A program made the translations under genes and the position numbers. A stretch of 64,000 nt of DNA from Gemmataceae bacterium (GTDB taxonomy: Bacteria > Planctomycetota > Planctomycetia > Gemmatales > Gemmataceae), in assembly GCA_041499805.1 (NCBI GenBank), contig JBGQKZ010000010.1:28224-92223 (forward strand), read 5' to 3'. A model generated the notes under the pieces. The model did not search any database. It worked only from the letters and a program-made list of their open reading frames with translations, and was not told where the DNA came from. Numbering within the stretch: the stretch's first letter is position 1; each line of letters begins with the position of its first letter. Shown piece after piece: positions 1,901-16,178 of the stretch.

Positions 1901-2368
1901 CTATCCACGGTCGAGGAGGCGGGGATCCAAGGCAAAGGGCATTTTGGCGACGATCGTGAACCGCCGCGCGTCGGCGTGCAGAGGATTGAGCAAGTAATTG
2001 GATTCTCTCGGCACGAGGGCCGACGGCACGCGGAGCACGGCCGTGGTGCGCTGGTCGAGCCAGGCATCGCCCAGCTTCTGAACCGACCGCGGGGCCGGAT
2101 GGCGTCGCCAAGACCTCGGCAAGTCGGCGGGCGTCAGTTCGGCGACAGCCACGCGCGCGGGCACGTCGAGCTCGATTGCGATGAGATCGCGCGGCGCCAG
2201 GTCCGGATCGACATGCACCAAAACTTCCAGACTGGCCAACGCCAGGGACTCCGAGGCGTAGACGACGTGTCGCGGCGCCGTGTGCCAACGGCCGGAGGCG
2301 TACAACCCGCCTTCGCCGCTAAGCGGTTTCTTCGCGAACGCTTTTCGCGCGAGTCGCCACAGCCGCAT
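1901..2368 (-). CDS. RES-domain toxin (RES-Xre type II TA)
   Basis: 155 aa. GGLYASGRWHTAPRHVVYASESLALASLEVLVH carries the conserved R...E...S residues of RES toxins. The start ATG directly abuts the TAA stop of the upstream antitoxin. Confidence 0.8.
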   Translation of the reverse strand: MRLWRLARKAFAKKPLSGEGGLYASGRWHTAPRHVVYASESLALASLEVLVHVDPDLAPRDLIAIELDVPARVAVAELTPADLPRSWRRHPAPRSVQKLGDAWLDQRTTAVLRVPSALVPRESNYLLNPLHADARRFTIVAKMPFALDPRLLDRG

Positions 2369-2815
2369 TTATGCGTACATCCCATGATTGATGCGGGTTA
2401 AGACCTCCTCGACCTGCCGCGCGCCGATCTCGGTGTCGAGCACGCTGAGGGGGGTCTGGCCGCCAAGGGCCCGATTGACGCGGCCTAGCCAAGACCGGGC
2501 CCGGTCGATATTGCCGAGCGTCTGCGCGGCGAGCTGCGTGATGTGCGCCAGCCGATAGAGCCGGTCCGATTCGAGCGGTGAGAGGCGTCGTTGTCGCTTC
2601 CGCCGGGCCAGCGTGCGCGGAGCGGTTCCCAGTACGGCCAAAAGGTCGCGGTGGGCGAGTCCCAGCAGCGCCCCCAGCGACTCCAGCGCCGCGTAGGGCA
2701 GACCCTCGCGAATGGCATGTTGCAGGTCGGCGGGCTCCTTGAACCGGCCAAGCACTCCCGCCCCGCCGAAAAGGTCAGCGGCATTCGCGCCAACGAAGAT
2801 GCTGGTCGCTGTCAT
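2369..2815 (-). CDS. Xre/MbcA/ParS-type antitoxin (DUF2384) partner of the RES toxin
   Basis: The C-terminal 149 aa of the 225-aa ORF (internal ATG at 2815) read MTATSIFVGANAADLFGG...RARSWLGRVNRALGGQTPLSVLDTEIGARQVEEVL, typical of the DUF2384 antitoxin. The upstream extension is Arg-rich and non-protein-like. Tightly coupled to the RES gene. Confidence 0.72.
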   Translation of the reverse strand: MTATSIFVGANAADLFGGAGVLGRFKEPADLQHAIREGLPYAALESLGALLGLAHRDLLAVLGTAPRTLARRKRQRRLSPLESDRLYRLAHITQLAAQTLGNIDRARSWLGRVNRALGGQTPLSVLDTEIGARQVEEVLTRINHGMYA

Positions 2816-3000
2816 ATGGCCTGTATTGTAGTGCCATTTGGCCGAGGCACAAGACGAACGAAGCCAAAACGCCCGGCGAGAAAGGGCACAGCATGAGAAC
2901 CTGTGCTCGTCCGCTGCGCCGTACCCACGCCGCAGCGCCGCAGACCGCAAACAGTCAAAGACCGGCGTGGGCATATCGGCTGCCAGCGCGACCCTTGCAT

Positions 3001-3528
3001 TCACTTGCCCTTCAGGACCATGCACATCTTGGCGATGGTGTCCCAATTCCGTGTGGTCGCCGGTATGCCAAGCTGCTTTTCGACGACTTCATTCGGGTAC
3101 AGCAACTTGTCGCCCAACCGCCGGTAGGCGCTCGGCACCAGTCGGCCGAAGATGCCAAGGAGTTTCACTTGCCAGCGGTCGCCCGGCGGCTGGGTGTACG
3201 GCAACGGCGGCAATTTTTGCGGCCGCTTCGCCAAGACGCAGACGCACCGACGTACATCGTCATCGAATGCCTCGTCCGCAAAGGGGTCCGCTGCGGCTAA
3301 GTCCAGCACTTCGCGTGCGCTACAGATCATCAACTCGGGCTTGAACGGCAATCGTCGGAGAATCTCGGCACGCAGCTTTGCCTGGCCGATTGCCGTGCGG
3401 ACAACAAAAGTGCCTGCGGCGCCAATGTTGACGACATCAAGATCGGCCAGCTCTTTCGCGAGGGCGCTGGGCCGAAAAGTTTGATGGCCGCCGACATTGG
3501 CGGCGCGGAAGAAGACGACGGAAGGCAT
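3001..3528 (-). CDS. DUF1697 family protein
   Basis: Internal ATG at 3528 gives MPSVVFFRAANVGGHQTFRPSALAKELADLDVVNIGAAGTFVV..., the characteristic DUF1697 N-terminus. The longer ORF extension has poor composition. Confidence 0.6.
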   Translation of the reverse strand: MPSVVFFRAANVGGHQTFRPSALAKELADLDVVNIGAAGTFVVRTAIGQAKLRAEILRRLPFKPELMICSAREVLDLAAADPFADEAFDDDVRRCVCVLAKRPQKLPPLPYTQPPGDRWQVKLLGIFGRLVPSAYRRLGDKLLYPNEVVEKQLGIPATTRNWDTIAKMCMVLKGK

Positions 3529-3700
3529 GAAGGAACTCCCAAGCGGCGGCTTCGACAAGATTTTCAACTGCTCTCCTTGACTTCCCCTTGGCGATTTTGT
3601 TACGGTCGGTCTAGTGGACAAATGAATAACAAACATAACACCCCAATAGGGCACGAACAACCAATTTCCAATCTCGATGTTAGTCATTCGGAGCAGAGCC

Positions 3701-4792
3701 ATGAGCGATACTTGTGTACAAGCCGTTGCCGATGCAGAAGTTGCGACCGTTGGACAACACTTGTCCGTTGCGGATGCCGGATTTCTCGGGCAGTCGCTCG
3801 ATGATCTCCGTGCCGCAGCTGTGATCGAAACGCAGTGGCTTTGGCACGGCTACCTGGCCGAGGGGAACGTAACGCTGCTGACCAGCCAGTGGAAATCGGG
3901 CAAAACCACGTTGCTCTCGGTCCTGCTCTCGAAGTTGAAAGCAGGCGGAACGTTGGGCGGACTCGCGGTGCGGGCCGGGACGGCGGCGGTGGTGTCGGAG
4001 GAACACGCCGGCATCTGGCTGCGGCGCAGTCAGTCGCTCGATTTCGGCCGGCATGTCCGCTGGTTCTGTCGCCCGTTCCGCGGCCAACCGACGGTGGAGC
4101 GCTGGAACGCCCTGATTGATTCGCTGTGCGACCTGCGTCGCCGCGAAGGGCTGGACCTGGTCGTGATCGATCCTCTGGCTTCATTTCTCCCCAGCCGCAA
4201 CGAAAACAACTCCGGCGTGATGATGGCCGCCTTGCTCCCCTTACAACGGCTGGCCGCCGAGGGGGTGAGCGTCCTCATCCTGCACCATCCGCGCAAAAAA
4301 GAAGCAGTCGAAGGCCAACTCGCCCGCGGCAGCGGCGCCCTGTCCGGCTTTGTGGATATCCTCATGGAGATGCACGTCTACACGCGCGGCGAGCCGAGCG
4401 ACCGCCGGCGTCGTGTGCAAGCGTTCTCGCGCCATCCCGAAACGCCGGGACACATTGTCCTGGAGTTGAACGCCGACGGCACCGACTACCTGGGCCGCGG
4501 CGACTACGACGAGCGCTCGTTCGGCGACTGCTGGGGCGCGCTCGAACGCATCTTCGCCAACGCCCGCCGGAAGCTGACCCGCCGCGACGTCCTCGACGAA
4601 TGGCCGGACGACTCGCCCAAGCCGACCGACATGACGGTCGGCCGCTGGCTGACGCATGCGCTCGACGACGCGAAAATCGTGCGCGATGGCGCGGGCACGA
4701 AGACGAAACCGTATCGGTATTGGATCAAAGGGCGGGAGAAGTATTTTGGGATGGGCGGGCTCGATCTCGATTTGGATGAATTGTGGGCGTGA
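3701..4792 (+). CDS. AAA_25 / RecA-like P-loop ATPase (RepA-like; often on integrative or plasmid elements)
   Basis: Walker A TSQWKSGKTTLLSVL and Walker-B-like LDLVVIDPLASF, then LILHHPRKK. Second ATG at 3701 has a GGAG RBS. Low-GC divergent intergenic region upstream. Confidence 0.7.
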   Translation: MSDTCVQAVADAEVATVGQHLSVADAGFLGQSLDDLRAAAVIETQWLWHGYLAEGNVTLLTSQWKSGKTTLLSVLLSKLKAGGTLGGLAVRAGTAAVVSEEHAGIWLRRSQSLDFGRHVRWFCRPFRGQPTVERWNALIDSLCDLRRREGLDLVVIDPLASFLPSRNENNSGVMMAALLPLQRLAAEGVSVLILHHPRKKEAVEGQLARGSGALSGFVDILMEMHVYTRGEPSDRRRRVQAFSRHPETPGHIVLELNADGTDYLGRGDYDERSFGDCWGALERIFANARRKLTRRDVLDEWPDDSPKPTDMTVGRWLTHALDDAKIVRDGAGTKTKPYRYWIKGREKYFGMGGLDLDLDELWA

Positions 4793-5065
4793 AGCGGGGG
4801 ACATCATGCGCGGCGGCGGCGGGGCGAAACAGGAGATCCGGCGGCAGCGCCGGCCTCCGGTTCTTTGGCGAGGGCATTCGGGCTGAAGGTTTGTTCGCCG
4901 CCGGTGTTGGTGGCGCGGAAGAAGACGATGGAGGGCGTGAAGTCACTCAGAAGGCTGGGCCGTACGCGCGCTGTCCGTTCGTCGCTGGCCGTCGCCGTTC
5001 GTCACGCGACGTATTAGCGGCAAAGCGCTGCGAACCTCACTTGTGGCAGCGGTGTCCACCCATCC

Positions 5066-5872
5066 ATGGACACGAACCTTTTGAATACCAAGTTCAGGCG
5101 GATCGGCGCACGCCTTAAGATCGCCGACGGCGCCGGCCGTGTCAATCGGACGGCCGGAGTCATTTCCCTGGATGTGCGAGCCGACCGCAAGGGCGAGTTC
5201 TTCGAGGTCGTGCGCCGGCCGGGAGCGGAGGCCGAGATCGCGGTCCTCGACCTTCGGGCTGCGGACCGCCATTTGCTCCTCCTCGTCCGGGAGAGTAAGG
5301 ACAAGAGCAAGTTTCTCTGCGGCCACGACGAGCGCCACTGGTTCGTCGCCGGCATTCCGGAGTCCGCACCGGTCGGCACCGTCGGTCAGGCCAAGGAAGC
5401 GTTGAAGCCCGTCGAAGTCTTGAACGCCCAGGTGGAAAAGTGCCTTCGGGCCAAGGCCCGCAATCGCCGCAAGAACGCCGCTTTTGTCCGCCAGGGTGAG
5501 TGGTTCTTCCTGCCGGCCCGGGACTTCGCCGTGGACGAGAAGCTGGTCCTGCCGAACGAGCCGCTGCGCCGGGGCAGCCGCAGCAAGCCCCATTGGGCCG
5601 AGTCTTGCTACCGCACGGGCGGCGAGACGGTCTACGTCTGCTCCCGGTACCCCAACGGCGTCACCGAGACGCCTTACAAGGCCATCCTCGCCCGTAGCCC
5701 GAAGGCCAAGGGCTGGGGCTGGCGCCCAATGCGGCGCAATCCTGGCGTTTACGTCCGGGGTCGCGTCCGACACGCCGACCACGGAACGGTCACGCTCCAC
5801 GGCTGGCACCGCGTCGTGCTGAACACCGAGGGGCAGTCGAAGGCGATGAAGAACGTGGCCTTCCTCGATTGA
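5066..5872 (+). CDS. Hypothetical protein (268 aa, Lys/Arg-rich, no recognised domain)
   Basis: Balanced, protein-like composition, unlike the overlapping minus-frame ORFs, which are Ala/Arg/Gly artefacts. Follows the AAA_25 ATPase on the same strand. Confidence 0.5.
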   Translation: MDTNLLNTKFRRIGARLKIADGAGRVNRTAGVISLDVRADRKGEFFEVVRRPGAEAEIAVLDLRAADRHLLLLVRESKDKSKFLCGHDERHWFVAGIPESAPVGTVGQAKEALKPVEVLNAQVEKCLRAKARNRRKNAAFVRQGEWFFLPARDFAVDEKLVLPNEPLRRGSRSKPHWAESCYRTGGETVYVCSRYPNGVTETPYKAILARSPKAKGWGWRPMRRNPGVYVRGRVRHADHGTVTLHGWHRVVLNTEGQSKAMKNVAFLD

Positions 5873-5989
5873 CGCGCGAACAAGGTTGAGAAGAAGGGCG
5901 CCCGTGGTCCCAATACCCCGCGGAGCTACGTCCGTGGTAGCTGGTTTGCGATCCGGCCGATGTATCCACCTAGTCCTGGTCTGGTGGGT

Positions 5990-6325
5990 TCAGGGTCTCT
6001 GTCCACGATTGACTCGAATACACCATCTGCCTTGAGAACGGCCGACGAGCGCCGCATGTATACGCGAAGCCAAGGAAACGGGATTCTTGGGGTCTTGTGT
6101 CGCGGTCACAATTCCGCTGTGCGCCGTCCCTTGATGATCTAAGCGCTCGTAATGACGGCGGTTGTGCGTGAGCACCGCTCGATTGAGCGCGTGGGCGCGG
6201 GCCAAAATGTCAGGGTCGGGCGCAGCCCGTCGGTTGTCTTCTTGAGCCGTCAGCACATCATGACCAAGCCGGCGCAGTTCCGCGACTGCCCCAAGGGGGA
6301 AATCCTCATCGGCGTAGAGCAGCAT
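5990..6325 (-). CDS. DUF5615 (PIN-like) toxin-family protein
   Basis: MLLYADEDFPLGAVAELRRLGHDVLTAQED...ILARAHALNRAVLTHNRRHY matches the DUF5615 pattern. Sits immediately downstream of a DUF433 gene. Confidence 0.7.
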   Translation of the reverse strand: MLLYADEDFPLGAVAELRRLGHDVLTAQEDNRRAAPDPDILARAHALNRAVLTHNRRHYERLDHQGTAHSGIVTATQDPKNPVSLASRIHAALVGRSQGRWCIRVNRGQRP

Positions 6326-6331
6326 CCGGGA

Positions 6332-6652
6332 TCACTCCGCAATTCCGCCTTCCCCTTTTTCGTTCTCCCGAATGACGCCGTCGATCTCGGCTGCGTGATC
6401 CGCGGCATATCCCCACGCGGCGTCGAGATCGGCCGGAGTCAAGGAAGGATAATCGCGCAGCAGGTCCGCATCCAATCCACCCAGGCGGCGATAGTTGACG
6501 AGCACCCAAACCGGAATCCTGCTGTCCCGAATGCAGGCATCCCCGCCGCAGCGATCGGGTCTCTTGGAAATGCGGACGGCGCTCGTGTGTGCGATCCCAC
6601 TGCCGAAGGCACGCAATCGCGTCGGTGGATCGTAAACGGCTGCCTGGCTCAT
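6332..6652 (-). CDS. DUF433 antitoxin-family protein
   Basis: Internal ATG at 6652. CGGDACIRDSRIPVWVLVNYRRLGGLDADLLRDYPSLTPADLDAAWGYAADH matches DUF433 (GKPCIRGTRIPV...YP.LT..DI..AL.Y). The start overlaps the stop of the upstream gene as ATGA. Confidence 0.7.
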   Translation of the reverse strand: MSQAAVYDPPTRLRAFGSGIAHTSAVRISKRPDRCGGDACIRDSRIPVWVLVNYRRLGGLDADLLRDYPSLTPADLDAAWGYAADHAAEIDGVIRENEKGEGGIAE

Positions 6653-7101
6653 GACGAACCTCCGAGCGGAAGAACCTCTATTTTTACCTGGCCGAGGATT
6701 TGGAACCCGCCGGCGCCGGCATCCTGGGTTCGGAGGGATAGCCGGACAAAATAGACGCCGGGAGTCGGAAAAGACACTCCTTGGTAATTGAGGCAAATGG
6801 TGGTCCAGTTGCCCCGCTCGGGATTTCTAGGATGTGGAAATGGTTTAATAGAAAGCCACATATCGGGCGACATGTCAGGCGGGAGAGCGCACCCATCAGG
6901 ACCGATGATTTCTCCGTGCAAAAGGTAACTCTTTCCCATCTCGTCGGCCGGAAACGTAACACGTCCGACGAGGGCCATCGCAGACTTGGTTGCCGGAAAC
7001 GCCTGCGGTTTGAGAACGTCGAACCCGCCACCAACGACGGCAAAGAGGCCGTCGTCCGTGATCGTCGCGGCGTCGGCGAGAAACGCGAAATCAAGCTTCA
7101 T
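6649..7101 (-). CDS. Hypothetical protein (151 aa), translationally coupled to the DUF433-DUF5615 pair
   Basis: Protein-like C-terminal 151 aa (MKLDFAFLADAATITDDGLFAVVGGGFDVLKPQ...) from an internal ATG at 7101. The longer N-extension is Cys/Arg-rich junk. Its TGA overlaps the DUF433 ATG. Confidence 0.45.
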   Translation of the reverse strand: MKLDFAFLADAATITDDGLFAVVGGGFDVLKPQAFPATKSAMALVGRVTFPADEMGKSYLLHGEIIGPDGCALPPDMSPDMWLSIKPFPHPRNPERGNWTTICLNYQGVSFPTPGVYFVRLSLRTQDAGAGGFQILGQVKIEVLPLGGSS

Positions 7102-7219: not shown

Positions 7220-7978
7220 TCACGCGGCTGGCGGCGGCCCCTCCAGCACCCCGCGCCAAAACCCCGGCAGCCCCTCATACGCCGCCTGGTAGGTTGGTTC
7301 CAGCGGCACGTTGACATACCGGTCCGGCCGCAGAAACAGCGGCATTTCCGGCAGGGCGGCGCCGACGGCGACGTGTTCCAGGTACACGTCGAGTTGCGGG
7401 CCGGCGGTGTAGCTGGCAAGCGTCAACGGTTCTTCGGTGGGAAGATCGTAGATCGTTTCCGAGCCCTCAAGGCGCTGGTGAAGCACGCCGTGAATGCCCT
7501 GCGGATCGTGCGGACCGGGCGGGAACGGGTCCACGACGAGAACGTGAATCCCTGCATCGAGCGCGGCGACGGCTTTGGCCGCAAAGTCGTCGAGATGACT
7601 TGCGCGATCCTTGTTCGCAAGGGACAGAATCTCGATGAGCGCCACGAGGCGGTGGCCGCTCACATGCCGAATGGCGACTGTACGCCGGCGAGCGAGCAGC
7701 CCGGATGGGAGCGTTAGTCTTCGACGCACGCGCGGCGGGCCTTCCGCAACGGCAGTTCCACCCGTCGCGGACGGCCAGGGCGTCGGCTCGCGCGACTCCG
7801 CACCGGTGTGGAGCGTCAACACGTCGGCAATCCCTCGGCCCGCGTGCTGTTCGGCGAGAGCGTAGTACCCTTCCGGCAATACGCCGCCGTTTAGCGCCTT
7901 CTGGATTTCCGGCACCCAGCCGACGTGGAAAGCGTGAGAGATCCCTGCTTCGACTCGCGTCCAATCATGCACGGGCAT
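7220..7978 (-). CDS. DUF4058/Uma2-like (restriction-endonuclease fold) family protein
   Basis: MPVHDWTRVEAGISHAFHVGWVPEIQKALNGGVL... resembles the DUF4058 N-terminal pattern. The family call is tentative. Confidence 0.45.
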   Translation of the reverse strand: MPVHDWTRVEAGISHAFHVGWVPEIQKALNGGVLPEGYYALAEQHAGRGIADVLTLHTGAESREPTPWPSATGGTAVAEGPPRVRRRLTLPSGLLARRRTVAIRHVSGHRLVALIEILSLANKDRASHLDDFAAKAVAALDAGIHVLVVDPFPPGPHDPQGIHGVLHQRLEGSETIYDLPTEEPLTLASYTAGPQLDVYLEHVAVGAALPEMPLFLRPDRYVNVPLEPTYQAAYEGLPGFWRGVLEGPPPAA

Positions 7979-8080
7979 GGTCCGTTCTCCGCAACTGGGA
8001 ACGAACATGATTATATCACGGCCATAGGCTGAAAAAACTGGGACGGAGACAGCATCGCCATCCCCGTCCCGTTCACTACC

Positions 8081-9700
8081 CTACACCTCCACCGCCTCCA
8101 CTTCCCGCACAAACCGCTCCTCGTCCGCGCTCAGGAAGGCGGCCACGACGTTGAACACTGCGTCGCTGAAGCCGCCGATGTTCAGGATGTCCGAGCGGTC
8201 GGGGGCCTGCGTGGTGGCATAGGGCTGGAGGTCGATGCACACCAGCTTCGGGGCCGCCGCGCCGCGCGGGTGCAGGCGGGCCTGCTGGACGACGAACGAC
8301 TGCCAGGCGGTCATGACGCCGGTCGAGCCGTGGCGGCCGACGCCGATCCAGCTTTCCATGTCGCTGACCAGGATGCAGCCGGCGAACGGACGCTTGCCGT
8401 GGCGCGCGACGGCTTCCTTCAGCGGCAGCGCGCAGTCGGTGCCGCCGCCGCCGTACTGGGCCAGGCGCGTGGCCAGGCTCAGGATGGTGTCGTGCGGATC
8501 GACCGTGACCCGGTGCGTCTTGTCGTCGAACGGAATCAGGACGCTGTCCGGGTTGCGGCGGAGGATGGCGGCGGCGAATAGGGCCGCCACGTCCACGCAG
8601 CGGACTCGGCTGGTGGCGCCGCGGCCGCGGCGGCCGGTGATCGGCGACTGCATCGAGCCCGACACGTCCAGGCCGATGACGACGGGCTCCGGCAGCTCCG
8701 GCACGTTGCCGCACGCGATCTCCGCCGCCTGAGCGAGGGCGGCCTTGATCTTCTGCGGCAGATTCGTGTCCGCGTTCAGGTACGCCGCCAGGTACTGGTA
8801 CGGGAACTGGCGCGACGCGCGGATTTCGTCCGCATCGGCGATCTTCGCGGCGACGAAATCGATCACGTCGGCATCCGCGAAGGCGTCGTGGCGCAGAAGC
8901 GTGTTCAGATTCATGCGCAGCGCCTGCGGACCCATCTGGCGGGCGATGGCCTTCCAGACGAGCGGGCCGCGCGCAGCATCGGCGAGCAGGTCCCAGCGGA
9001 AGCGGGCGTTCTCCAGAATCTGCACCTGCTCCTCCGGCGTGGCGGCCTTGCGGTAGGTGTCGAGGGCTCGCACTTCCTCCGGCAGGTCGTCCGCCGTCGC
9101 GGGCGACCACTTCTCAAGCGGGCGGTCCGTCAGCCAGCCGAAGAGGGCGCGGCGGGCGTCGTCCTTCGGCGTCGGGCGAGCCAGGCGAAGCACGTCGCGC
9201 AGGCTCGGGTCGTTGCCGATCGACGCGGCAAGCAGTCGGCTGACGCTCGCTTCATTCAGCCAGCGCTGGCAGGCACGCTGCGGCGCGTACGACAGGCTCT
9301 TGCGGCCGAACTGGCCCGAGCGGAGCATCTGGAAGAACGTGCGCAGGAACCGGCCGTTATCGACCACGCGGTCGAACACTCGACGGAACAGGGCACGGTC
9401 ACGCTTCGACAGGAGCAGCAACAGTGCCGCCGGCATGTCCTTCATGTAGGCGCGCTCGCGGCTGTAGAGAGCCAGCTTCGCCAGGAAGACATTGTCGTCC
9501 ACCGCGTTCGCCAGCGCGAGCAGCGTGGCGAGCTGGTTTTCCGCGTGCGCGTAGAAAATGCCGTTGAAGCAACCGGTGGCGGCGAGCTGGGCCAGCGCGT
9601 GCTTCGGCGGCAGGCGGTAGGCCGGAGCGCCCTCTTCATTGCGCGCCTCGGCGCGCGGCAGCAGGCTCGCCAGACTTGCAAACAGACCCTTGTTCGCCAT
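8081..9700 (-). CDS. rsr: Ro60-related protein Rsr (TROVE domain + C-terminal vWA/MIDAS)
   Basis: 539 aa. [14 protein letters not shown] resembles the TROVE GTEGGTYYA motif. The C-terminus has a vWA MIDAS motif ([11 protein letters not shown]). ATG at 9700 is preceded by a GAGGAG RBS. The overlapping 344-aa minus ORF in another frame is an artefact. Confidence 0.85.
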
Positions 9701-9728: not shown

Positions 9729-9826
9729 CCGACGAAAGTTGGGCAGAGCGGTCGTACCTCGCGGTACGTGGAGGCTCCCGCCTCCTGGCCACGGTACAGG
9801 TGGATGTACTCCGCACCGGCAGTCGG
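9729..9826 (-). ncRNA. Y-RNA-like unit I (YrlB-like). Shares the terminal Ro-binding-type stem but has three small GNRA-capped hairpins instead of a tRNA-like module
   Basis: Minus strand: 5' CGACUGCCGGUGCGGAGUACAUC ... 3' CUCUGCCCAACUUUCGUCGG, then a U7 tract and the rsr RBS. Middle hairpins are GGAGGC-GGGA-GCCUCC and GUACC-GCGA-GGUAC. Coordinates approximate. Confidence 0.45.
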
Positions 9827-9842
9827 ACCGAAAAAGCAAAAA

Positions 9843-9938
9843 CCCGACGAAGTTTGGGCAGAGTCGCGACCCCTCCGAAAAGGAGCCGGTCAGGATTCGA
9901 ACCTGAAGGTACCGATGTACTCCGCACCGGCAGTCGGG
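9843..9938 (-). ncRNA. Y-RNA-like unit II (T-arm only)
   Basis: Same 5'/3' arms (CCCGACUGCCGGUGCGGAG / CUCUGCCCAAACUUCGUCGGG). Perfect T-arm UCAGG-UUCGAAU-CCUGA, then a CUCC-UUUUC-GGAG hairpin. Coordinates approximate. Confidence 0.45.
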
Positions 9939-9953
9939 TGTGTTTTCAAGCGA

Positions 9954-10075
9954 CCGACGAAGATTTGTTCAGAGTCGTTCCGGTGCTCTGCCATTGAGCT
10001 ACGGCGTCTTGCGACGCTGGCGGGACTCGAACCCACAACCTCCGAATTAAGATGTACTCCAAAACGGCAGTCGGT
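9954..10075 (-). ncRNA. Y-RNA-like unit III with a full permuted tRNA mimic (YrlA-like)
   Basis: 5' arm ACCGACUGCCGUUUUGGAGUACAUC. T-arm GUGGG-UUCGAGU-CCCGC. Acceptor-like stem closed by a GNRA loop (GCGUC-GCAA-GACGC). D-arm GCUC-AAUGGCA-GAGC. 3' arm CUCUGAACAAAUCUUCGUCGG. Coordinates approximate. Confidence 0.5.
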
Positions 10076-10092
10076 CTTGTTTCACAAGGCCG

Positions 10093-10208
10093 GAGCGACG
10101 AAGGATTGGTCAGACGCATTGCTCTACCCATTGAGCTACGCGCACCGCGAAAAAAGGGTGCGCGGCCGGACTCGAACCGGCAACCGATGTACTCCAACCG
10201 GCAGTCGC
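10093..10208 (-). ncRNA. Y-RNA-like unit IV with a full permuted tRNA mimic (YrlA-like)
   Basis: 5' arm CGACUGCCGGUUGGAGUACAUC. T-arm GCCGG-UUCGAGU-CCGGC. An 8-bp acceptor-like stem CGCGCACC/GGUGCGCG closed by CUUUUUUCGC. D-arm GCUC-AAUGGGUA-GAGC. 3' arm CUGACCAAUCCUUCGUCG. Coordinates approximate. Confidence 0.5.
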
Positions 10209-10289
10209 TGCGGCCAGGCTGCTTGGTGAGATAGACAGGGCGGCCGCGGGATGGGTTCGCGGTTCGTCGTCGAACTTGATTCCAACCAT

Positions 10290-10940
10290 TCAAGTCATCG
10301 ACGGGTCCGCGCACGCCGCCACCCGCTGACAAGCCTGCCCATAGAACTTGATCTGGTCCCACGCAAAGCAACCCAGGAATATCGCCGCCCAAGCGCCGCC
10401 GAACAGGCCGAGGTTGGTTGCACTCGGTAAGGAGGGCGTTTCCTTGAAGATGCCGGCCGCGAGGAACGAGAGCAGGGCGGTCGCCAAAAAGGAGCCGAAG
10501 CGAACGAATCGGCTGGCGAGCAACACCACGGGGATCTCGAAGTGATAGGGGTCGCGGCCGTTGTCGAAGTTAAGGGTTACGGGAAGGGAGCGCACCTCGC
10601 TGCGAATCAGGTTTAGCCAGTCGTGCGACAAGGGCGAGCCAATATCGAACGAGAGAGCGCGGCGGTTGCCGTCCGGTTCATCCGGCGCTTGTGTATGGAC
10701 CACGCTGCGCGGCGCGACCAGGCGCAAGCGCCAACCGGCGGCCGTTTGCTCTTGCGTGACGACGCGCAGGCGGTAGGTTTTGCCGCGTCGGAGCTTGTAG
10801 CCGACCAGAGTCGGGGCGATGCGGCGGTCGTGTTCGTCACGCAATTCGTAGCTGAGCGGCGCCCGCGGCTGGAGGCAGGGCGGAATGACGCAACGCTCGC
10901 GCGGCGGCGGGACGGCACTTGTCGATAGGGTCAGGACCAT
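10290..10940 (-). CDS. Hypothetical protein with two C-terminal TM helices, last gene of the STAND-NTPase cassette
   Basis: Internal ATG at 10940, 5 nt after the upstream stop. C-terminal hydrophobic stretches VVLLASRFVRFGSFLATALLSFLAAGIF and LGLFGGAWAAIFLGCFAW. Confidence 0.45.
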   Translation of the reverse strand: MVLTLSTSAVPPPRERCVIPPCLQPRAPLSYELRDEHDRRIAPTLVGYKLRRGKTYRLRVVTQEQTAAGWRLRLVAPRSVVHTQAPDEPDGNRRALSFDIGSPLSHDWLNLIRSEVRSLPVTLNFDNGRDPYHFEIPVVLLASRFVRFGSFLATALLSFLAAGIFKETPSLPSATNLGLFGGAWAAIFLGCFAWDQIKFYGQACQRVAACADPSMT

Positions 10941-10944
10941 GAGT

Positions 10945-13029
10945 TCAGCTCTCCGGAGCAATGAAGGCCAGGTGCGGCGCGGTCTGTTCGGCCACAAAGT
11001 GATTGAGGATCGACGCGGAAGCGTGCGGCGTTTCGGTGGCGATTTGGTTCCACCACTTCGGCAGCGCGAGCCAGGGTGCTAAGTCAACGGGCGCGACGGC
11101 ACGCAACTGCACGCGCGGACCTGTGCCGTTCGCGGCGAACTGGTCCCACATGGCCCTCGTTCCCGCCGGCAGGTGTTCGTGATACGGCGGCGTGAGGTCA
11201 CTGCCGCGCGGCCACAGGAGGATGAGCAGGTCGGCAGGGCGGACCGGCCCGGCCATCATTTTTAGTTTCGTTTCCAGGTCGCGCGGCATGGCCCGTTTCT
11301 CGCCGAGGAGCAGGCCGATGCCGAGTGCCCGCGTTGTCGTTCCCGCGCGCCACTGGCACTTCGTGATCTGGCCGTACGTGGGATGGGCGCCGGCTTGCGG
11401 ATCGTTCGCGGCGGCGACCGGCATGCCGGCGCCGTTGGCGACGCCGTCCGCGATGAGGCACTGCAACCACTTCAAGAGTCCGGCGTGCAACTCATCGGCC
11501 TGCCCACCGCAGCCGGCTTCAAGGATTTGCCGGGCCTTGCGGAGTTCCCGTTGCCAGCACGCTTCGAGCGGCTCGATCAACATGCCTTCGGCGACGGCGG
11601 CGCTGGGCTGCGCGGCGGGCGCCAACGCCACGCGATTGCCGAGCCGCTCGTCGTAGCGATCGCGCAGCGCTTGTAATGCCTGGCGCAACGGCGGTTCCTC
11701 ACCCGGCGAACGAACGATCCGTTCGAGGTCCTCTTCGCGGAGCGGAAAGATCGGCGGCGCGTCGAAAGAGTCGGCTTCAAAGTACTCGCGGAGCAAGGGG
11801 CGCATGCGCGACGCGACGATTTTCTGCAACTGTGCGGCCGTGACGTTCGGCATCTGCATGCGGCTCAGGCTGCCGTGGCCCGGCACGCGAATGACGCCTT
11901 GCTGAATGCGTTGCAAGGCGTAGCTGCTGATCATCGACTTTTCCAACTGCTGCCAGTGGCCGATCTCCGCGAACAGCAGAAAGGGAATGCCGCGGTGCGA
12001 GTCGAGCACGTCGGCGAGACCCTTGAAGAAGGGATGGCACAGCTCTTTGTCCGGCGGGTCGCCGAGCAACGATTCGAGAGCGTCGAACAAAAAGATGATC
12101 GGCAAGCGGGCCAGGAGACACAGCTCAAGCAACGCCTGAAAAAGCTCATCGACCAGCGTTTCGCGGGCCGGCTGGATCTTTGCATCGACTTCCGTGTAGC
12201 CGTCGAGGAGAAAATCGTACACAGTTTCGCGCGGCGCGCCGAACGCCAGGCCGACGAGGCGGTCGTAGAGGCCGCGGCGGATTTGGCCTGCGATGGTATG
12301 GCTCGGTTCACTGCGGATCTGTTGCAAGGCCAGCGTCCGCAGGGGTTGGAAATCCACTTCGTTCTCCGCGCAAACCTCACGTAGCGTTCGGTCGCCGGCC
12401 TGTTCCAGGTCGTGGATGAGCCGACGACGACGTTCGGCGCGAAGACGGACGCCGACGCCGAAGAAGTAGCGCCAGAAGCGGCCCGCGGCGGCTTCCCGAG
12501 CGAGCCAGTCGATCTCCGTCATGCCGCGGAGAGCTTGCACGAGCGCCTGCCGCGTGAACGCGTCGGCGAGCAGCTCCAGCGTGCCGGGCGCGCGCTCGTC
12601 CGCCTCGCTTTGCAGATGGCGCACGACCTGATGGAGCAGATACTCCATAAAAGGACGCTGTGGCTCGTAAATTACGGGAGTGACCGCGAGGCACGGCCGG
12701 CCATCGCCGGCGCGGCGTTGCAACGCATGGACCATGTGCGTTTTGCCGATGCCGCGTTTCCCTTCGACGACCACCACGCCGGACCGGGGCAAGTCGCTGT
12801 CCCATTCCAGCCCGGGTAGCCGGTAGCGCTCCACCACGGCGTTCAAGGCGCGGGCGATATCTTGGTGAATGTCGGGCACATGAACGCGCGCGAAGTCGGC
12901 CTCCGGCTTGCGCGCGGCGACGAACACGTCGAACGGGTTGTCCTTCCCTCGCAGAAAACTCATCAGGCCGGCATGCTCCGTCGCAGGAGCCGGCGCCGGG
13001 GTTTCAAGCGTGAGCAATGAGTTGGGCAT
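10945..13029 (-). CDS. STAND/AAA_16-like P-loop NTPase (~690 aa)
   Basis: Walker A VVVVEGKRGIGKTHMVHAL (GxGKT, AAA_16-like) and a Walker-B candidate PIIFLFDALE, with a long helical C-terminal region. Start uncertain: ATG 13029 overlaps the upstream gene by 26 nt; the alternative ATG at 12963 (MSFLRGKDNPF) leaves a gap. Confidence 0.65.
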   Translation of the reverse strand: MPNSLLTLETPAPAPATEHAGLMSFLRGKDNPFDVFVAARKPEADFARVHVPDIHQDIARALNAVVERYRLPGLEWDSDLPRSGVVVVEGKRGIGKTHMVHALQRRAGDGRPCLAVTPVIYEPQRPFMEYLLHQVVRHLQSEADERAPGTLELLADAFTRQALVQALRGMTEIDWLAREAAAGRFWRYFFGVGVRLRAERRRRLIHDLEQAGDRTLREVCAENEVDFQPLRTLALQQIRSEPSHTIAGQIRRGLYDRLVGLAFGAPRETVYDFLLDGYTEVDAKIQPARETLVDELFQALLELCLLARLPIIFLFDALESLLGDPPDKELCHPFFKGLADVLDSHRGIPFLLFAEIGHWQQLEKSMISSYALQRIQQGVIRVPGHGSLSRMQMPNVTAAQLQKIVASRMRPLLREYFEADSFDAPPIFPLREEDLERIVRSPGEEPPLRQALQALRDRYDERLGNRVALAPAAQPSAAVAEGMLIEPLEACWQRELRKARQILEAGCGGQADELHAGLLKWLQCLIADGVANGAGMPVAAANDPQAGAHPTYGQITKCQWRAGTTTRALGIGLLLGEKRAMPRDLETKLKMMAGPVRPADLLILLWPRGSDLTPPYHEHLPAGTRAMWDQFAANGTGPRVQLRAVAPVDLAPWLALPKWWNQIATETPHASASILNHFVAEQTAPHLAFIAPES

Positions 13030-13834
13030 AGTACTTGATCTCTTGGCCTGCGAGCAGGGCGTACTGTTCTTCCTGCAATTGATAGCCGGCGCCGGTAAAG
13101 GGGTGTAGCCGCACTTTGCCGTGCTCGACCAACTGCCGCACCCCATCGTGAAACTGACCGATGGTCAATCGACGAGGCTCGGCGACGCGGTGGAAAAGCT
13201 CCGGGAGCGCACAGTGTCCCAGGGGATGCCGCCGTTGGTACTCCTCAAGATGGCGTACTGCTTCCGCCAGCCATTCGGAGTCGGATGCCGGGGCTGTGGC
13301 CGCGCCCGCGCGAGCGCTTGTTTGGAGCAGTCCCGCCACGTCAGGCGGTCGTAGGCGCTCCTGTAGGGCGGTCACGAGTTGCTTATGGTGGAGAAACGCC
13401 TCACTCAGTTGGTCGATCTTACCGCGAATGGCTTTCAGCTCACCGGCGCCTTCCTGCAAGGAGGAGACGGCTGTGTCGAGCAGCTTTACGGGTTCGCTGT
13501 TTTCCAGGACGGCACGGATGCCGGTCGGCGTGATGCGATAAAGTTCCTTGCGTGAATTCCCTTTTCCTACAAACTCGCCGGTCGTTGCCAGCCAACCGCG
13601 ATCGAGACAGAGCAGGGCCGCCGGTTTCGCGGTGGAACTGTCGAAGACCCCCGGTTTCGCCTTGGTGCCAAGCAGCACTCGTGGCGCGGGATCGAGCAGC
13701 GCCCGGGCCAGCGCCTGAAATGCCACGGCTTGCGGGTCTGCTTTCACCTTTGCCACGAACGGCGCTCCATCCGCTTCGGAGATTTCAGCATCGCGTTCGG
13801 CAACATTATGGAAGCGGCGGCGCTTGCCTAGCAA
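13004..13834 (-). CDS. Hypothetical protein (276 aa), first gene of the NTPase cassette
   Basis: Protein-like composition (K/E/Y/Q-rich) and no recognised domain. The opposite-strand ORFs here are Arg/Ser artefacts. Confidence 0.5.
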   Translation of the reverse strand: MLGKRRRFHNVAERDAEISEADGAPFVAKVKADPQAVAFQALARALLDPAPRVLLGTKAKPGVFDSSTAKPAALLCLDRGWLATTGEFVGKGNSRKELYRITPTGIRAVLENSEPVKLLDTAVSSLQEGAGELKAIRGKIDQLSEAFLHHKQLVTALQERLRPPDVAGLLQTSARAGAATAPASDSEWLAEAVRHLEEYQRRHPLGHCALPELFHRVAEPRRLTIGQFHDGVRQLVEHGKVRLHPFTGAGYQLQEEQYALLAGQEIKYYAQLIAHA

Positions 13835-13882
13835 GCAGATTCTGCAAAGGAACGGATTTCGCGCGATTTTCAGCTCTCGCCT

Positions 13883-15121
13883 CTACCCCTGTGGCTTCGC
13901 CACCCGCCCCATAAACAGCACACTCCCCGTCTGATTTTCCCGAATCGCGAACACAAACGGGTGATCCGCCTTGAACGTCGCCCGCTTCATCGCTTGCGCG
14001 ATGCCGGCCGCCTTCATCATGACGGCCGTGGCGGCGGCAGCTTCGGTGCCGGCTTCGTTCACGTCCACGAACGCCTTGTGGACGATGGCGTCGATCCACA
14101 GTTTTTCTTCCTGTGTCATGCCCGAAAAATCCGCCTTGCTGGAATCGAAGGCGAGGGGTATTCCCATGGACGCGAGGGTCTTCGAAAGCTCGAATTCCGC
14201 GGTCATTTTGAAGCGGGGCAGGGCGAGATCGACGATGTAATGCTGCATCTTCGTACGCCAGGCGTCCATGTTTTGGGCGGTCAGCTTTTTCTCGAATTCA
14301 GCCAGGCCGCTCGCGTCTTTCGGCAGGAAGATCAGCGTCGACTGCTGGCCGCCTTGATAGGGCAGCTCCACCATCTGGAACGAGCCTTCGTCGAAATAAG
14401 AGAGCCCTTCGACCTTGTGCATCATCGGCACGGTAACGTTCGTGCGGTCGGCGAGGTGAAAATCTTCCGGCTTGGTGTTCTCCTTGCGAAAGGCTTCACT
14501 CCACGCGCCCTTGAAGTAGATGGCGTTGACCAGGACCAGGCGGGTCGCCGGGCCGAGCAGGCCGGGAGCGATCAGGTCTTTGATCTTGTCTTGGGTTTGC
14601 TGCTCGACCCAGCGGTTGATCGCCAGCCGGGCCGGTTCGGCCGCGGTGTGGAAATCGACCTCGCGCAGCCCGGCGGCGTAGTCGTCGCGGAGGATATCAA
14701 GGAAGGGCGGCTTGAAGTGGTAACCCGATTGCCCCCACAGCGAATTGGCGGTGTTCAACTGAAACTTCCGCGGCGTGCCGTCCCCTTGCAAGGCGCGAAT
14801 CAGGTTTGCGAACGCCGGATCGAGCCGCGCGCGTTCGACTGGGTAGTGCAGCGTGTGGGCCATCTGCTCGGCGGTTTGGCCTTGAGCGCCGGCGTAGGTC
14901 ATGGCGAGGGCGGTGGAGATGCTGTACGGCGAGAAGAAGAGGTTGCCGTCCTTCCGCGCCAGGCGGGCGTAGAGGTCGCCGGCGAAGGCGTTGTTTCCCT
15001 GCACGACCGCGTTCATGTCCAAATTAGGTTTCAGCGGTTTCTCTCCTTCCGCACGGCCGGGCGGCAACGCGGTTAGAAACAGGGCCGAGAGGATCAGCAA
15101 CGACCAGAGCAAGCGGTTCAT
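13883..15121 (-). CDS. Serpin (serine protease inhibitor) with signal peptide
   Basis: Serpin motifs FFSPYSISTALAMTYAGAQGQTAEQM, NAIYFKGAWSEAF, and a reactive-centre-loop region EAGTEAAAATAVMM ... HPFVFAIRENQTGSVLFMGRV. Start taken at the ATG at 15121 (MNRLLWSLLILSALFL). The track M at 15142 is a TTG. Confidence 0.85.
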   Translation of the reverse strand: MNRLLWSLLILSALFLTALPPGRAEGEKPLKPNLDMNAVVQGNNAFAGDLYARLARKDGNLFFSPYSISTALAMTYAGAQGQTAEQMAHTLHYPVERARLDPAFANLIRALQGDGTPRKFQLNTANSLWGQSGYHFKPPFLDILRDDYAAGLREVDFHTAAEPARLAINRWVEQQTQDKIKDLIAPGLLGPATRLVLVNAIYFKGAWSEAFRKENTKPEDFHLADRTNVTVPMMHKVEGLSYFDEGSFQMVELPYQGGQQSTLIFLPKDASGLAEFEKKLTAQNMDAWRTKMQHYIVDLALPRFKMTAEFELSKTLASMGIPLAFDSSKADFSGMTQEEKLWIDAIVHKAFVDVNEAGTEAAAATAVMMKAAGIAQAMKRATFKADHPFVFAIRENQTGSVLFMGRVAKPQG

Positions 15122-15272: not shown

Positions 15273-16178
15273 TTACGGCGTGCGCTGCCGCTTCGCTCGG
15301 GAGTTAATCTGTTCAATCAGCGCGTGATCCTCGGGTGACACATTTGGACCGGGCGGCGCGGCAAAAAGGAATACGGTTTGAAGGCGTGGCAGCTTCTGTA
15401 GAAATCCGAGCGGAGGCAGTTTGCGAATCTCGCGCGTGTGCAGCTCTTCCAGATTTGGTGCTTGGACAATGTTCTCCAAAGGGAAGGAAAGCCGACCGCC
15501 GAGGACCAAGTATCGCAAATCAGGACCGATGCGGCGCCAATCCGGCTCGAACGAGCCGCAGAGACTGATATCCAAGGCACGAACGTGCGCCTTGGGATGC
15601 AAAATGAGGGTGCGAAGTTTCGGGCAGTGATTGAGTTCAAGCTCTCGGAGCTTGGGCATATGAGAAAGATCGAGGTCACGCAATCGTCCATCGGATTCGT
15701 TCCTAATCGACAGTTCTTGAATCCCGATGCACTGGAGGATGGATTCAAACGGGCGGCACAACATAATGTCGGCGTGCCGAAGCTTGCCTAATCCCGACAA
15801 ATCAACACTGGGAAAGCGATCCGCCGTTCTCCAACCCATGCCACAGTCAATCCACAACCATTCCAACTCGGAGAGCTGGCCGAGTGCCGTGAGTTCAATT
15901 GGAAGATAGATCGAAAGCGCCAGCTTGCGAAGTACCGGCAGCTCACCCAACAAGTCCGCGAGCCGGCGGTCGCCGAGTGACTGATTGCTCAAGTGAACCG
16001 AATTGACTTTGTACTTCCATGCCAACTTCGTATGGCGCTCAGTCCAAGGGCCAACGGCGTTCAGGTCAATGGTTTCATCAAATCGGTTGATGTAGCAATC
16101 CGCTTCCTCCAGCAAGAATTCGTGATCAACTGCTTTGCCGGCTCCGCCAAGAAAAAAAGGCCGGTCGTGCTTTGCCAT
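15273..16178 (-). CDS. Leucine-rich-repeat domain protein
   Basis: Repeated LxxLxLxxCxxL periods: LRDLDLSHMPKLRELELNHCPKLRTLILHP, LRALDISLCGSFEPD. Confidence 0.55.
   Translation of the reverse strand: MAKHDRPFFLGGAGKAVDHEFLLEEADCYINRFDETIDLNAVGPWTERHTKLAWKYKVNSVHLSNQSLGDRRLADLLGELPVLRKLALSIYLPIELTALGQLSELEWLWIDCGMGWRTADRFPSVDLSGLGKLRHADIMLCRPFESILQCIGIQELSIRNESDGRLRDLDLSHMPKLRELELNHCPKLRTLILHPKAHVRALDISLCGSFEPDWRRIGPDLRYLVLGGRLSFPLENIVQAPNLEELHTREIRKLPPLGFLQKLPRLQTVFLFAAPPGPNVSPEDHALIEQINSRAKRQRTP

Follow-up and report, generated by a model that had tools for sequence, protein, structure and literature searches.

The window analysed here is a 64,000 nt stretch of DNA from a Gemmataceae bacterium of the phylum Planctomycetota (assembly GCA_041499805.1, contig JBGQKZ010000010.1, positions 28,224 to 92,223), and the subject is a cassette of three genes on its minus strand, designated A, B and C. 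Gene A encodes a predicted double winged-helix protein, gene B a predicted AAA+ ATPase of ORC/Cdc6-like fold and gene C a small predicted membrane protein. The three genes are inherited as a unit amid neighbourhoods that are unrelated in other respects, and their linkage across 14 distinct other loci is far beyond chance. The favoured reading, with a probability of roughly 0.4, is that A-B-C is a putative accessory ATPase switch that senses nucleic acids and is linked to an effector or anchor in the membrane, and that it may be a defence system. An earlier note on this DNA had proposed a sensor-effector, defence-like cassette of four genes, the fourth being an upstream serpin. A conserved, tightly coupled A-B-C unit without a recognised family is in keeping with that proposal; however, the serpin is excluded from the unit and PADLOC finds no known system in it.

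Gene boundaries and conservation of the A-B-C unit

Four co-directional, tightly spaced minus-strand open reading frames (ORFs) are present, as had been described: the serpin (15121..13883; a match to Pfam Serpin), gene A (13756..13004), gene B (13029..10945; 694 aa) and gene C (10940..10290; 216 aa). The ORF listing places all four at the coordinates first reported, apart from the revision of the gene A start that follows. Gene A had been read as a 276 aa protein, and a maximal ORF of that length does exist from TTG 13834 (13834..13004). The start is most likely GTG 13756, giving 250 aa, because this codon is preceded, 8 nt upstream, by a GGAG, homologues begin at an equivalent MAKA/VAKA and NCBI annotates 250 aa. 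The expected overlap of genes A and B is found and measures 26 nt, with the start of gene B falling within the 3′ end of gene A. Likewise, genes B and C are tightly adjacent, but the distance from the gene B stop to the gene C ATG is 4 nt rather than the 5 nt given previously. An identical 694 aa gene B product is held by both NCBI and JGI. As judged from these gene boundaries, A-B-C is a self-contained three-gene operon, predicted to be translationally coupled through the 26 nt overlap of A and B and the 4 nt gap between B and C.

With gene A starting at GTG 13756, the serpin stop is separated from gene A by 126 nt (48 nt with the maximal ORF), and this gap contains a promoter-like site, TTGCTA-N18-CATAAT (13805..13834, minus strand). 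The site was found in a consensus scan and agrees with the consensus at 9 of 12 positions; two sites occur in the scanned region where 1.0 would be expected by chance. It is a weak candidate, and possibly the operon's own promoter.

Protein searches over 5.8 billion clustered proteins returned small families of 35 (B), 55 (A) and 16 (C) members, and many of the matches share contigs where contig data exist. Exact-protein look-ups and pattern scans gathered the 14 distinct other loci (the narrow peptide patterns gave only 3 + 2 in the genome and metagenome collections). These are numbered L001/4, L002/3, L005, L006, L007, L008/9, L010, L011, L012, L013, L014, L015-17 and L018, together with three JGI contigs for which there is no DNA. 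Genes A and B are adjacent in 14 of 14, with an overlap of 17–32 nt wherever both genes are intact, and the identity of protein B to that of the window runs from 61 % down to 21 %. Of the 11 loci whose sequence continues beyond B, 10 have a C-type gene 3′ of it, either only a few nucleotides away or following a frameshift or a short gap; the L007/L008 clade is the sole clade without one. Co-occurrence across genomes, named in the earlier note as a check on its proposal, is thus found for the three non-serpin genes.

Third genes of the C type, encoding approximately 200–225 aa with a soluble domain and two transmembrane (TM) segments, follow B in the divergent clades L005, L015 and L018, and L014 carries a shorter third ORF of 144 aa, also with two TM segments. 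Sequence similarity among C-type genes is unrecognisable by BLAST in L015 and weak in L018 (E = 1e-4) and L005 (E = 2.8e-6). The three proteins diverge in parallel, with A, B and C sharing 51, 59 and 53 % identity with the window proteins in L002 and 35, 37 and 23 % in L005. In two metagenome assemblies from the European Nucleotide Archive the cassette is interrupted: C is split by a frameshift in L001 (12257–12896), and A and B are both split in L013 (9020–12062). These frameshifts are either sequencing errors or marks of pseudogenes and decaying copies.

The window serpin, Rsr, DUF4058 and leucine-rich repeat (LRR) proteins have no tblastn match in the loci with DNA (L001–L013), and none of the four is listed in the gene tables of L014–L018 or of the contigs without DNA. 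Since A-B-C recurs while these genes do not, the conserved unit is A-B-C and the serpin is incidental to it. The proposal that the secreted serpin acts as a protease-regulating partner of the ATPase cassette draws on its position, on the same strand and with its stop no more than 126 nt (or 48 nt) upstream of gene A. However, no other locus has a serpin within 8–10 kb, or to the nearer contig end, which refutes the partnership as a conserved association. Its signal peptide implies export, whereas A and B are predicted to be cytoplasmic; the promoter-like site falls between serpin and gene A, and no protease is encoded in the cassette. A functional serpin partnership is hardly credible on these grounds.

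When 1.84 billion cluster representatives were searched exhaustively with a hidden Markov model of protein B, 366 proteins passed E ≤ 1e-3 and 114 of them E ≤ 1e-30. Matches other than short fragments are mostly full-length (approximately 660–750 aa), and all named sources are Planctomycetota (Gemmataceae, Pirellulales, Planctomycetia and Planctomycetaceae). The family is rare, apparently restricted to this phylum, and rigid in its architecture.

The genes flanking A-B-C vary from lineage to lineage. A neighbourhood that changes in this way could indicate a mobile-element module for DNA transactions, in which B would act like TnsC, MuB, IstB or ORC, A would be a DNA-binding adaptor and C would provide membrane attachment. 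Two loci offer some encouragement, L013 with a transposase 2.5 kb upstream (PIN and DUF4258 genes are also found there) and L014 with a terminase small-subunit gene 6 kb downstream. However, the cassette has no transposase, integrase or replication gene that accompanies it consistently, and protein B is set apart from TnsC and MuB by the lack of a linked transposase (TnsA/B, MuA) and by being twice their size with extra domains. No direct or inverted repeats flank the cassette in the window, and a search of 72,556 plasmid and 50,697 phage records found no homologue of protein B. Additionally, no compositional anomaly is seen in genes B and C, whose GC content of 0.65 matches the surroundings; gene A is slightly lower at 0.62, with 0.67 at third codon positions (GC3). 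A mobile-element role is considered improbable.

Predicted products of genes A, B and C

The AlphaFold2 model of protein B, built on 24 homologues, is confident (mean predicted local distance difference test score, pLDDT, 84), and conservation was read from a deep alignment spanning 21–40 % identity. The model runs from a P-loop core through a helical insert after strand 2, the Walker B strand and two further strands to a lid and a C-terminal α/β domain. The insert (aa 127–306, approximately 180 aa) is all-helical and lies between the strand at 114–116 and the Walker B strand at 311–315. The lid is helical (aa 398–462), and the C-terminal domain (aa ~480–690, approximately 210 aa) has five strands and an α-β-β-β-α-β topology. 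Invariant in the deep alignment are an N-terminal LR..(D)NPF(D) motif (aa 26–34), the GxxGxGKT of Walker A (G90-x-x-G-x-G-K96-T97), the Walker B residues D316-x-L-E319, E355, R374 and R449; R408, in the first lid helix, is near-invariant. R374 stands just ahead of strand 5 (379–382), and the position just before strand 5 is the site of the ORC-type arginine finger (PMC12839542). Read from their positions, R374 is a candidate arginine finger and R408 a candidate lid arginine.

The nearest solved folds to protein B in a Foldseek search of the PDB are ORC/Cdc6, TnsC and BrxC, with no match at E ≤ 1e-3; the AAA+ core and lid are closest to ORC/Cdc6 structures, at a sequence identity of 8–17 %. On the model, protein B is predicted to be an AAA+ ATPase of ORC/Cdc6-like fold with its nucleotide-binding and hydrolysis residues conserved. 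It has no match at curated thresholds in Pfam, NCBIfam, PADLOC or PHROGs. STAND-type (signal transduction ATPases with numerous domains) profiles fall short, with AAA_16 at 26.2 bits (cut-off 32.6), NACHT at 23.9 bits (cut-off 26.7) and AAA_22 likewise below threshold, and two distant relatives barely exceed the AAA_16 cut-off (34.6 and 33.5 bits). Neither a repeat sensor of the TPR, WD40 or LRR kind in the C-terminus (model; Pfam repeat matches) nor a winged-helix domain (model) was found in protein B, the winged helices being located on the separate protein A.

The earlier description of a STAND/AAA_16-like P-loop NTPase therefore holds as to the P-loop ATPase but not as to the type, the fold being ORC/Cdc6-like and the repeat sensor of STAND proteins being absent. 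Its helical C-terminal sensor-like region is not borne out, as the long helices belong to the insert within the ATPase domain, and the last 210 aa are α/β in the model. Assignment to a housekeeping family, or to LuxR/MalT-type regulators, had been named as what would overturn the proposal; profile searches and the model place the NTPase in no such family. A LuxR/MalT-type regulator was rejected specifically, there being no HTH or GerE match in protein B (Pfam, NCBIfam) and the C-terminal domain being α/β in the model. A KAP P-loop NTPase was also rejected: the insert of protein B is modelled as a run of helices, the TM helices detected are those of the separate protein C, and KAP_NTPase matches a single distant member of the family at 16.2 bits, under the cut-off of 20.

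Foldseek matches to the C-terminal domain of protein B are weak (MspJI, PaqCI, AddB/AdnA and Cap4; probability 0.35–0.89, E ≥ 4e-3). An active PD-(D/E)xK nuclease was rejected, since the conserved acidic and lysine catalytic residues are absent and the Foldseek hints are weak and unconfirmed; the only invariant residues of the domain in the deep alignment are W492, W521, G553, L602 and A655. The domain is read from the model as a putative binding domain.

The model of protein A (pLDDT 83) contains two winged-helix domains, at aa ~34–112 and ~185–272 in the numbering of the 276 aa ORF (used for protein A throughout), joined by a 47-residue connecting helix (aa 115–161) and a variable linker. 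Conservation peaks in the C-terminal domain, at its third helix and its wing (TIGQFHDGLR ... HPFTGAAYQLxEEQYALVAGQEIKYY), and the GQFHD helix is still present in the most divergent copies. The helix presumed to serve in recognition and the wing are constant from 100 % to about 30 % identity. Because this surface stays constant across such divergence, it suggests a protein partner, probably B, over diverging DNA sites. Two segments are very strongly conserved and of low confidence in the models, the HPFTGAAYQLxEEQYAL wing of protein A (aa 245–272) and the LR..DNPFD motif of protein B (aa 26–34); both look like docking motifs that fold upon partner binding. As with protein B, protein A has no match at curated thresholds in Pfam, NCBIfam, PADLOC or PHROGs, where alignment members were also scanned singly.

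Protein C consists, by hydropathy, of a soluble N-terminal domain of approximately 135 aa followed by two hydrophobic segments (aa ~138–166 and ~174–195) and a short tail, which agrees with the C-terminally membrane-spanning protein described before. No signal peptide is seen. Its 16 homologues have a mean column identity of 65 %, and their alignment has alternating hydrophobic patterns typical of β-strands in the N-terminal domain, which is probably β-rich. Protein C is thus predicted to face the cytoplasm, anchored by a C-terminal two-helix membrane hairpin. It has no family match in Pfam, NCBIfam, PADLOC, PHROGs or the PDB sequences, with alignment members again scanned singly. Against PDB chains, sequence profiles of A, B and C picked up nothing beyond noise from P-loops or coiled coils and a weak match that was PadR-like. 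The three non-serpin proteins are accordingly without a recognised family, as had been stated, and none has a recognisable enzymatic effector domain in the libraries and models examined.

A cassette that encodes no enzymatic effector would also suit a membrane-tethered regulatory switch outside immunity, in which C would hold the winged-helix regulator A at the membrane or release it, with the B ATPase in control, much as anti-sigma or sequestration systems do; the genes regulated would lie elsewhere. Sigma70-WD40 fusions, or ECF (extracytoplasmic function) sigma factors and Ser/Thr kinases, adjoin the cassette in L002, L012 and one JGI contig. However, Planctomycetota genomes are very rich in sigma factors and kinases, and given that abundance their proximity is weak evidence. 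The constancy of the protein A recognition helix and wing fits a protein partner better than diverging operators, and no neighbouring target gene is conserved. ORC/Cdc6-like ATPases are not known as partners of sequestration-type switches. A regulatory switch of this kind appears unlikely.

Possible function and relation to known systems

An accessory role in conflict or defence is favoured over a housekeeping one because the cassette is rare, occurs in variable contexts and sometimes stands beside predicted conflict systems. In a 6 Mb planctomycete genome (L018), an FtsH ternary system that looks complete (1968–6861) is found directly upstream of A-B-C and comprises a radical-SAM/SPASM protein, fvmX6, fvmX5, an FtsH-like AAA plus M41 protease and an fvmX3-analog. 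In L012 (6979–12206), at 4–10 kb from the cassette, are a CARF6 protein (PADLOC, 6e-95), an ORC-CDC6-like protein, a PRTase-CE and a PfkB-like kinase; this cluster constitutes a second ORC-like conflict system close to the cassette. A patatin-like phospholipase adjoins the cassette in L007, a PhdYeFM/PIN toxin-antitoxin pair is located 4 kb away in L002, and an N6_N4 methyltransferase abuts C in one JGI contig. Small TM proteins beside sensor ATPases are a recurrent design in abortive infection, and this likeness, together with the lack of any other encoded effector, is the further reason for the conflict or defence reading.

Under the favoured reading, protein B would oligomerise in an ATP-dependent manner on a nucleic-acid or protein cue, as do ORC/Cdc6, TnsC, BrxC and RdrA, and protein A would help to recognise the cue or restrain B through its winged-helix domains. 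The candidate contacts between the two are the C-terminal winged helix of A (GQFHD helix and YQLxEEQYAL wing) and the N-terminal NPF motif of B, since these are the most conserved surfaces of the two proteins. The activated complex would then work on or through C at the inner membrane, and the output could be membrane damage (a pore or lesion) by which infection or growth is aborted, or the tethering of bound DNA at the membrane.

Protein B resembles ORC/Cdc6 in its Walker A and B motifs, the helical insert that follows strand 2, an arginine just before strand 5 and the helical lid with its arginine. A winged-helix module is used in both, but here it is carried by the separate protein A instead of being fused. 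Protein B departs from ORC/Cdc6 in its insert, expanded to approximately 180 aa, in an unrelated α/β C-terminal domain of its own and in having a membrane-protein partner; moreover, replication genes do not accompany A-B-C, and not all members of the phylum carry it.

Small TM effectors of the Cap15 type, from the cyclic oligonucleotide-based antiphage signalling system (CBASS), and of Pycsar combine a small soluble β-rich domain with a two-helix hairpin and are encoded beside the sensor. Protein C has no detectable sequence similarity to them, its TM hairpin is C-terminal, and neither a cyclase nor a second messenger is encoded.

Among defence systems built around an ATPase, such as BREX and those of DUF499/DUF6079, BrxC is a bacterial ORC/Cdc6-like AAA+ ATPase reported to act as scaffold for an anti-phage system of several genes (PMC12839542), and it works with separate DNA-binding helper proteins, resembling the split between A and B here. 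However, BrxC is 1200–1300 aa long with fused winged helix-turn-helix and coiled-coil domains, and bacteriophage exclusion (BREX) systems have no two-TM partner. PglZ and the PglX/BrxX methyltransferase, which define BREX, are absent from A-B-C, and there is no PADLOC Brx or Pgl match. RdrA of RADAR (restriction by an adenosine deaminase acting on RNA) and other AAA+/STAND ATPases of defence (Avs5) are likewise distinct, with no RdrB deaminase adjacent to the cassette, no PADLOC Rdr match and no SIR2 or nuclease effector domain; protein B lacks the TPR-like sensor, and the likeness is confined to the generic ATPase core. A-B-C is best called an unannotated variant within the broad class of multi-gene systems centred on initiator-type AAA+ ATPases.

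Several points weigh against a defence role. The conflict-type neighbours are suggestive only, an anecdotal defence-island signal, and the neighbours in L001, L015, one JGI contig and the window itself are ordinary metabolic or regulatory genes. The best match of the cassette in PADLOC-DB v2 is mad8 (E = 0.0033, 15 bits), which covers the P-loop only, and A and C have none. The absence of protein B homologues from the plasmid and phage records counts here also. Killing by protein C is assumed by analogy with small TM effectors, no effector enzyme being encoded, and it is gene coupling alone that points to a physical interaction of A, B and C. Lastly, the existence of the L007/L008 clade without C means that C may be dispensable for the core activity.

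A more specific proposal is that A-B-C constitutes a previously undescribed immune system found only in Planctomycetota, in which an ORC/Cdc6-like ATPase and a detached winged-helix adaptor sense invading DNA and signal to a two-TM protein that collapses the membrane or tethers the DNA. This is put forward tentatively, with the odds against it; if true, the design would be free of an enzymatic effector and distinct from BREX, RADAR and Avs. Any defence system of this make-up would represent a new wiring of an initiator-type AAA+ switch to the membrane and would extend the links between replication-initiator ATPases and immunity known from BrxC and RdrA. If the cassette is regulatory or tethers DNA instead, it would be an unusual bacterial use of the ORC fold. 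Planctomycetota are under-sampled for mobile-element biology and immunity, and discovery pipelines based on E. coli and Bacillus miss operons confined to phyla of this kind. In practical terms, exact gene boundaries, motifs for mutagenesis (K96, D316/E319 and R374) and orthologous loci are now available, and the serpin and Rsr/Y-RNA genes can be dropped.

Neighbouring genes in the window

The Pfam Serpin match of the serpin has E = 2.6e-123. Its N-terminus resembles a signal peptide, so that the earlier description of it as secreted stands, and its hinge, EAGTEAAAATAV, is of the inhibitory type. No protease gene is found near this secreted inhibitory-type serpin in the window.

Downstream of gene C, the 589 nt gap to the next gene carries four tandem Y-RNA-like genes on the minus strand, the first three of which match Rfam YrlA, each under the gathering score of 69. 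Y1 (10211..10089; 63.6 bits, E = 5.6e-14) and Y2 (10074..9951; 49.2 bits) contain tRNA-like T-arm and D-arm modules, Y3 (9940..9838) scores 26.2 bits, and Y4 (~9826..9735) has only the conserved Ro-binding stem, with a 5′ half CCGACUGCCGGUGCGGAGUACAUC and a 3′ half CUCUGCCCAA..UUCGUCGG. The tRNA-like elements of this intergenic region were considered as tRNAs and rejected; none is called by ARAGORN, and they are the tRNA-like modules of the Y RNAs. The next gene (9700..8081, minus strand) encodes a Ro60/Rsr orthologue with vWA_Ro60 and TROVE matches, named '60 kDa SS-A/Ro ribonucleoprotein' by JGI, which scores 76 bits against the NCBIfam Rsr model (cut-off 900) and is hence divergent. A strong terminator-like hairpin, with a 14 bp stem and a T run, is located 3′ of rsr at 8070..8040.

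No hairpin of the terminator-like kind was found in the stretch from gene C to the first Y RNA, so that in this genome transcription could read through from A-B-C into the Y RNAs and rsr. The arrangement raises the question of whether A-B-C, Y1–Y4 and rsr form a single transcript for the sensing or repair of RNA damage, as every element is on the minus strand, the gene C stop (10290) is only 78 nt from the first Y RNA (10211) and the gap between them lacks a hairpin like the one that follows rsr. However, the cassette stays intact without rsr in the other loci, by tblastn in L001–L013 and by the gene tables for the remainder, which largely refutes such a unit as a general property. Moreover, Y RNA genes beside rsr are the standard bacterial arrangement and need no other partners (PMC4201824). 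A joint RNA-repair unit is therefore very improbable, and among the loci examined the serpin and Rsr/Y-RNA genes are neighbours of the cassette in this genome only.

A DUF4058 protein is encoded directly downstream of rsr (7220–8008, minus strand), and another DUF4058 gene occurs near the cassette in L013. On the other side of the serpin, a minus-strand gene at 15273–16178 encodes a 301 aa protein with a sub-threshold LRR_4 match (22.7 bits against a cut-off of 27). The GC content of this gene is 0.546 (GC3 0.62), clearly below the 0.61–0.69 of its neighbours, and may indicate recent acquisition.

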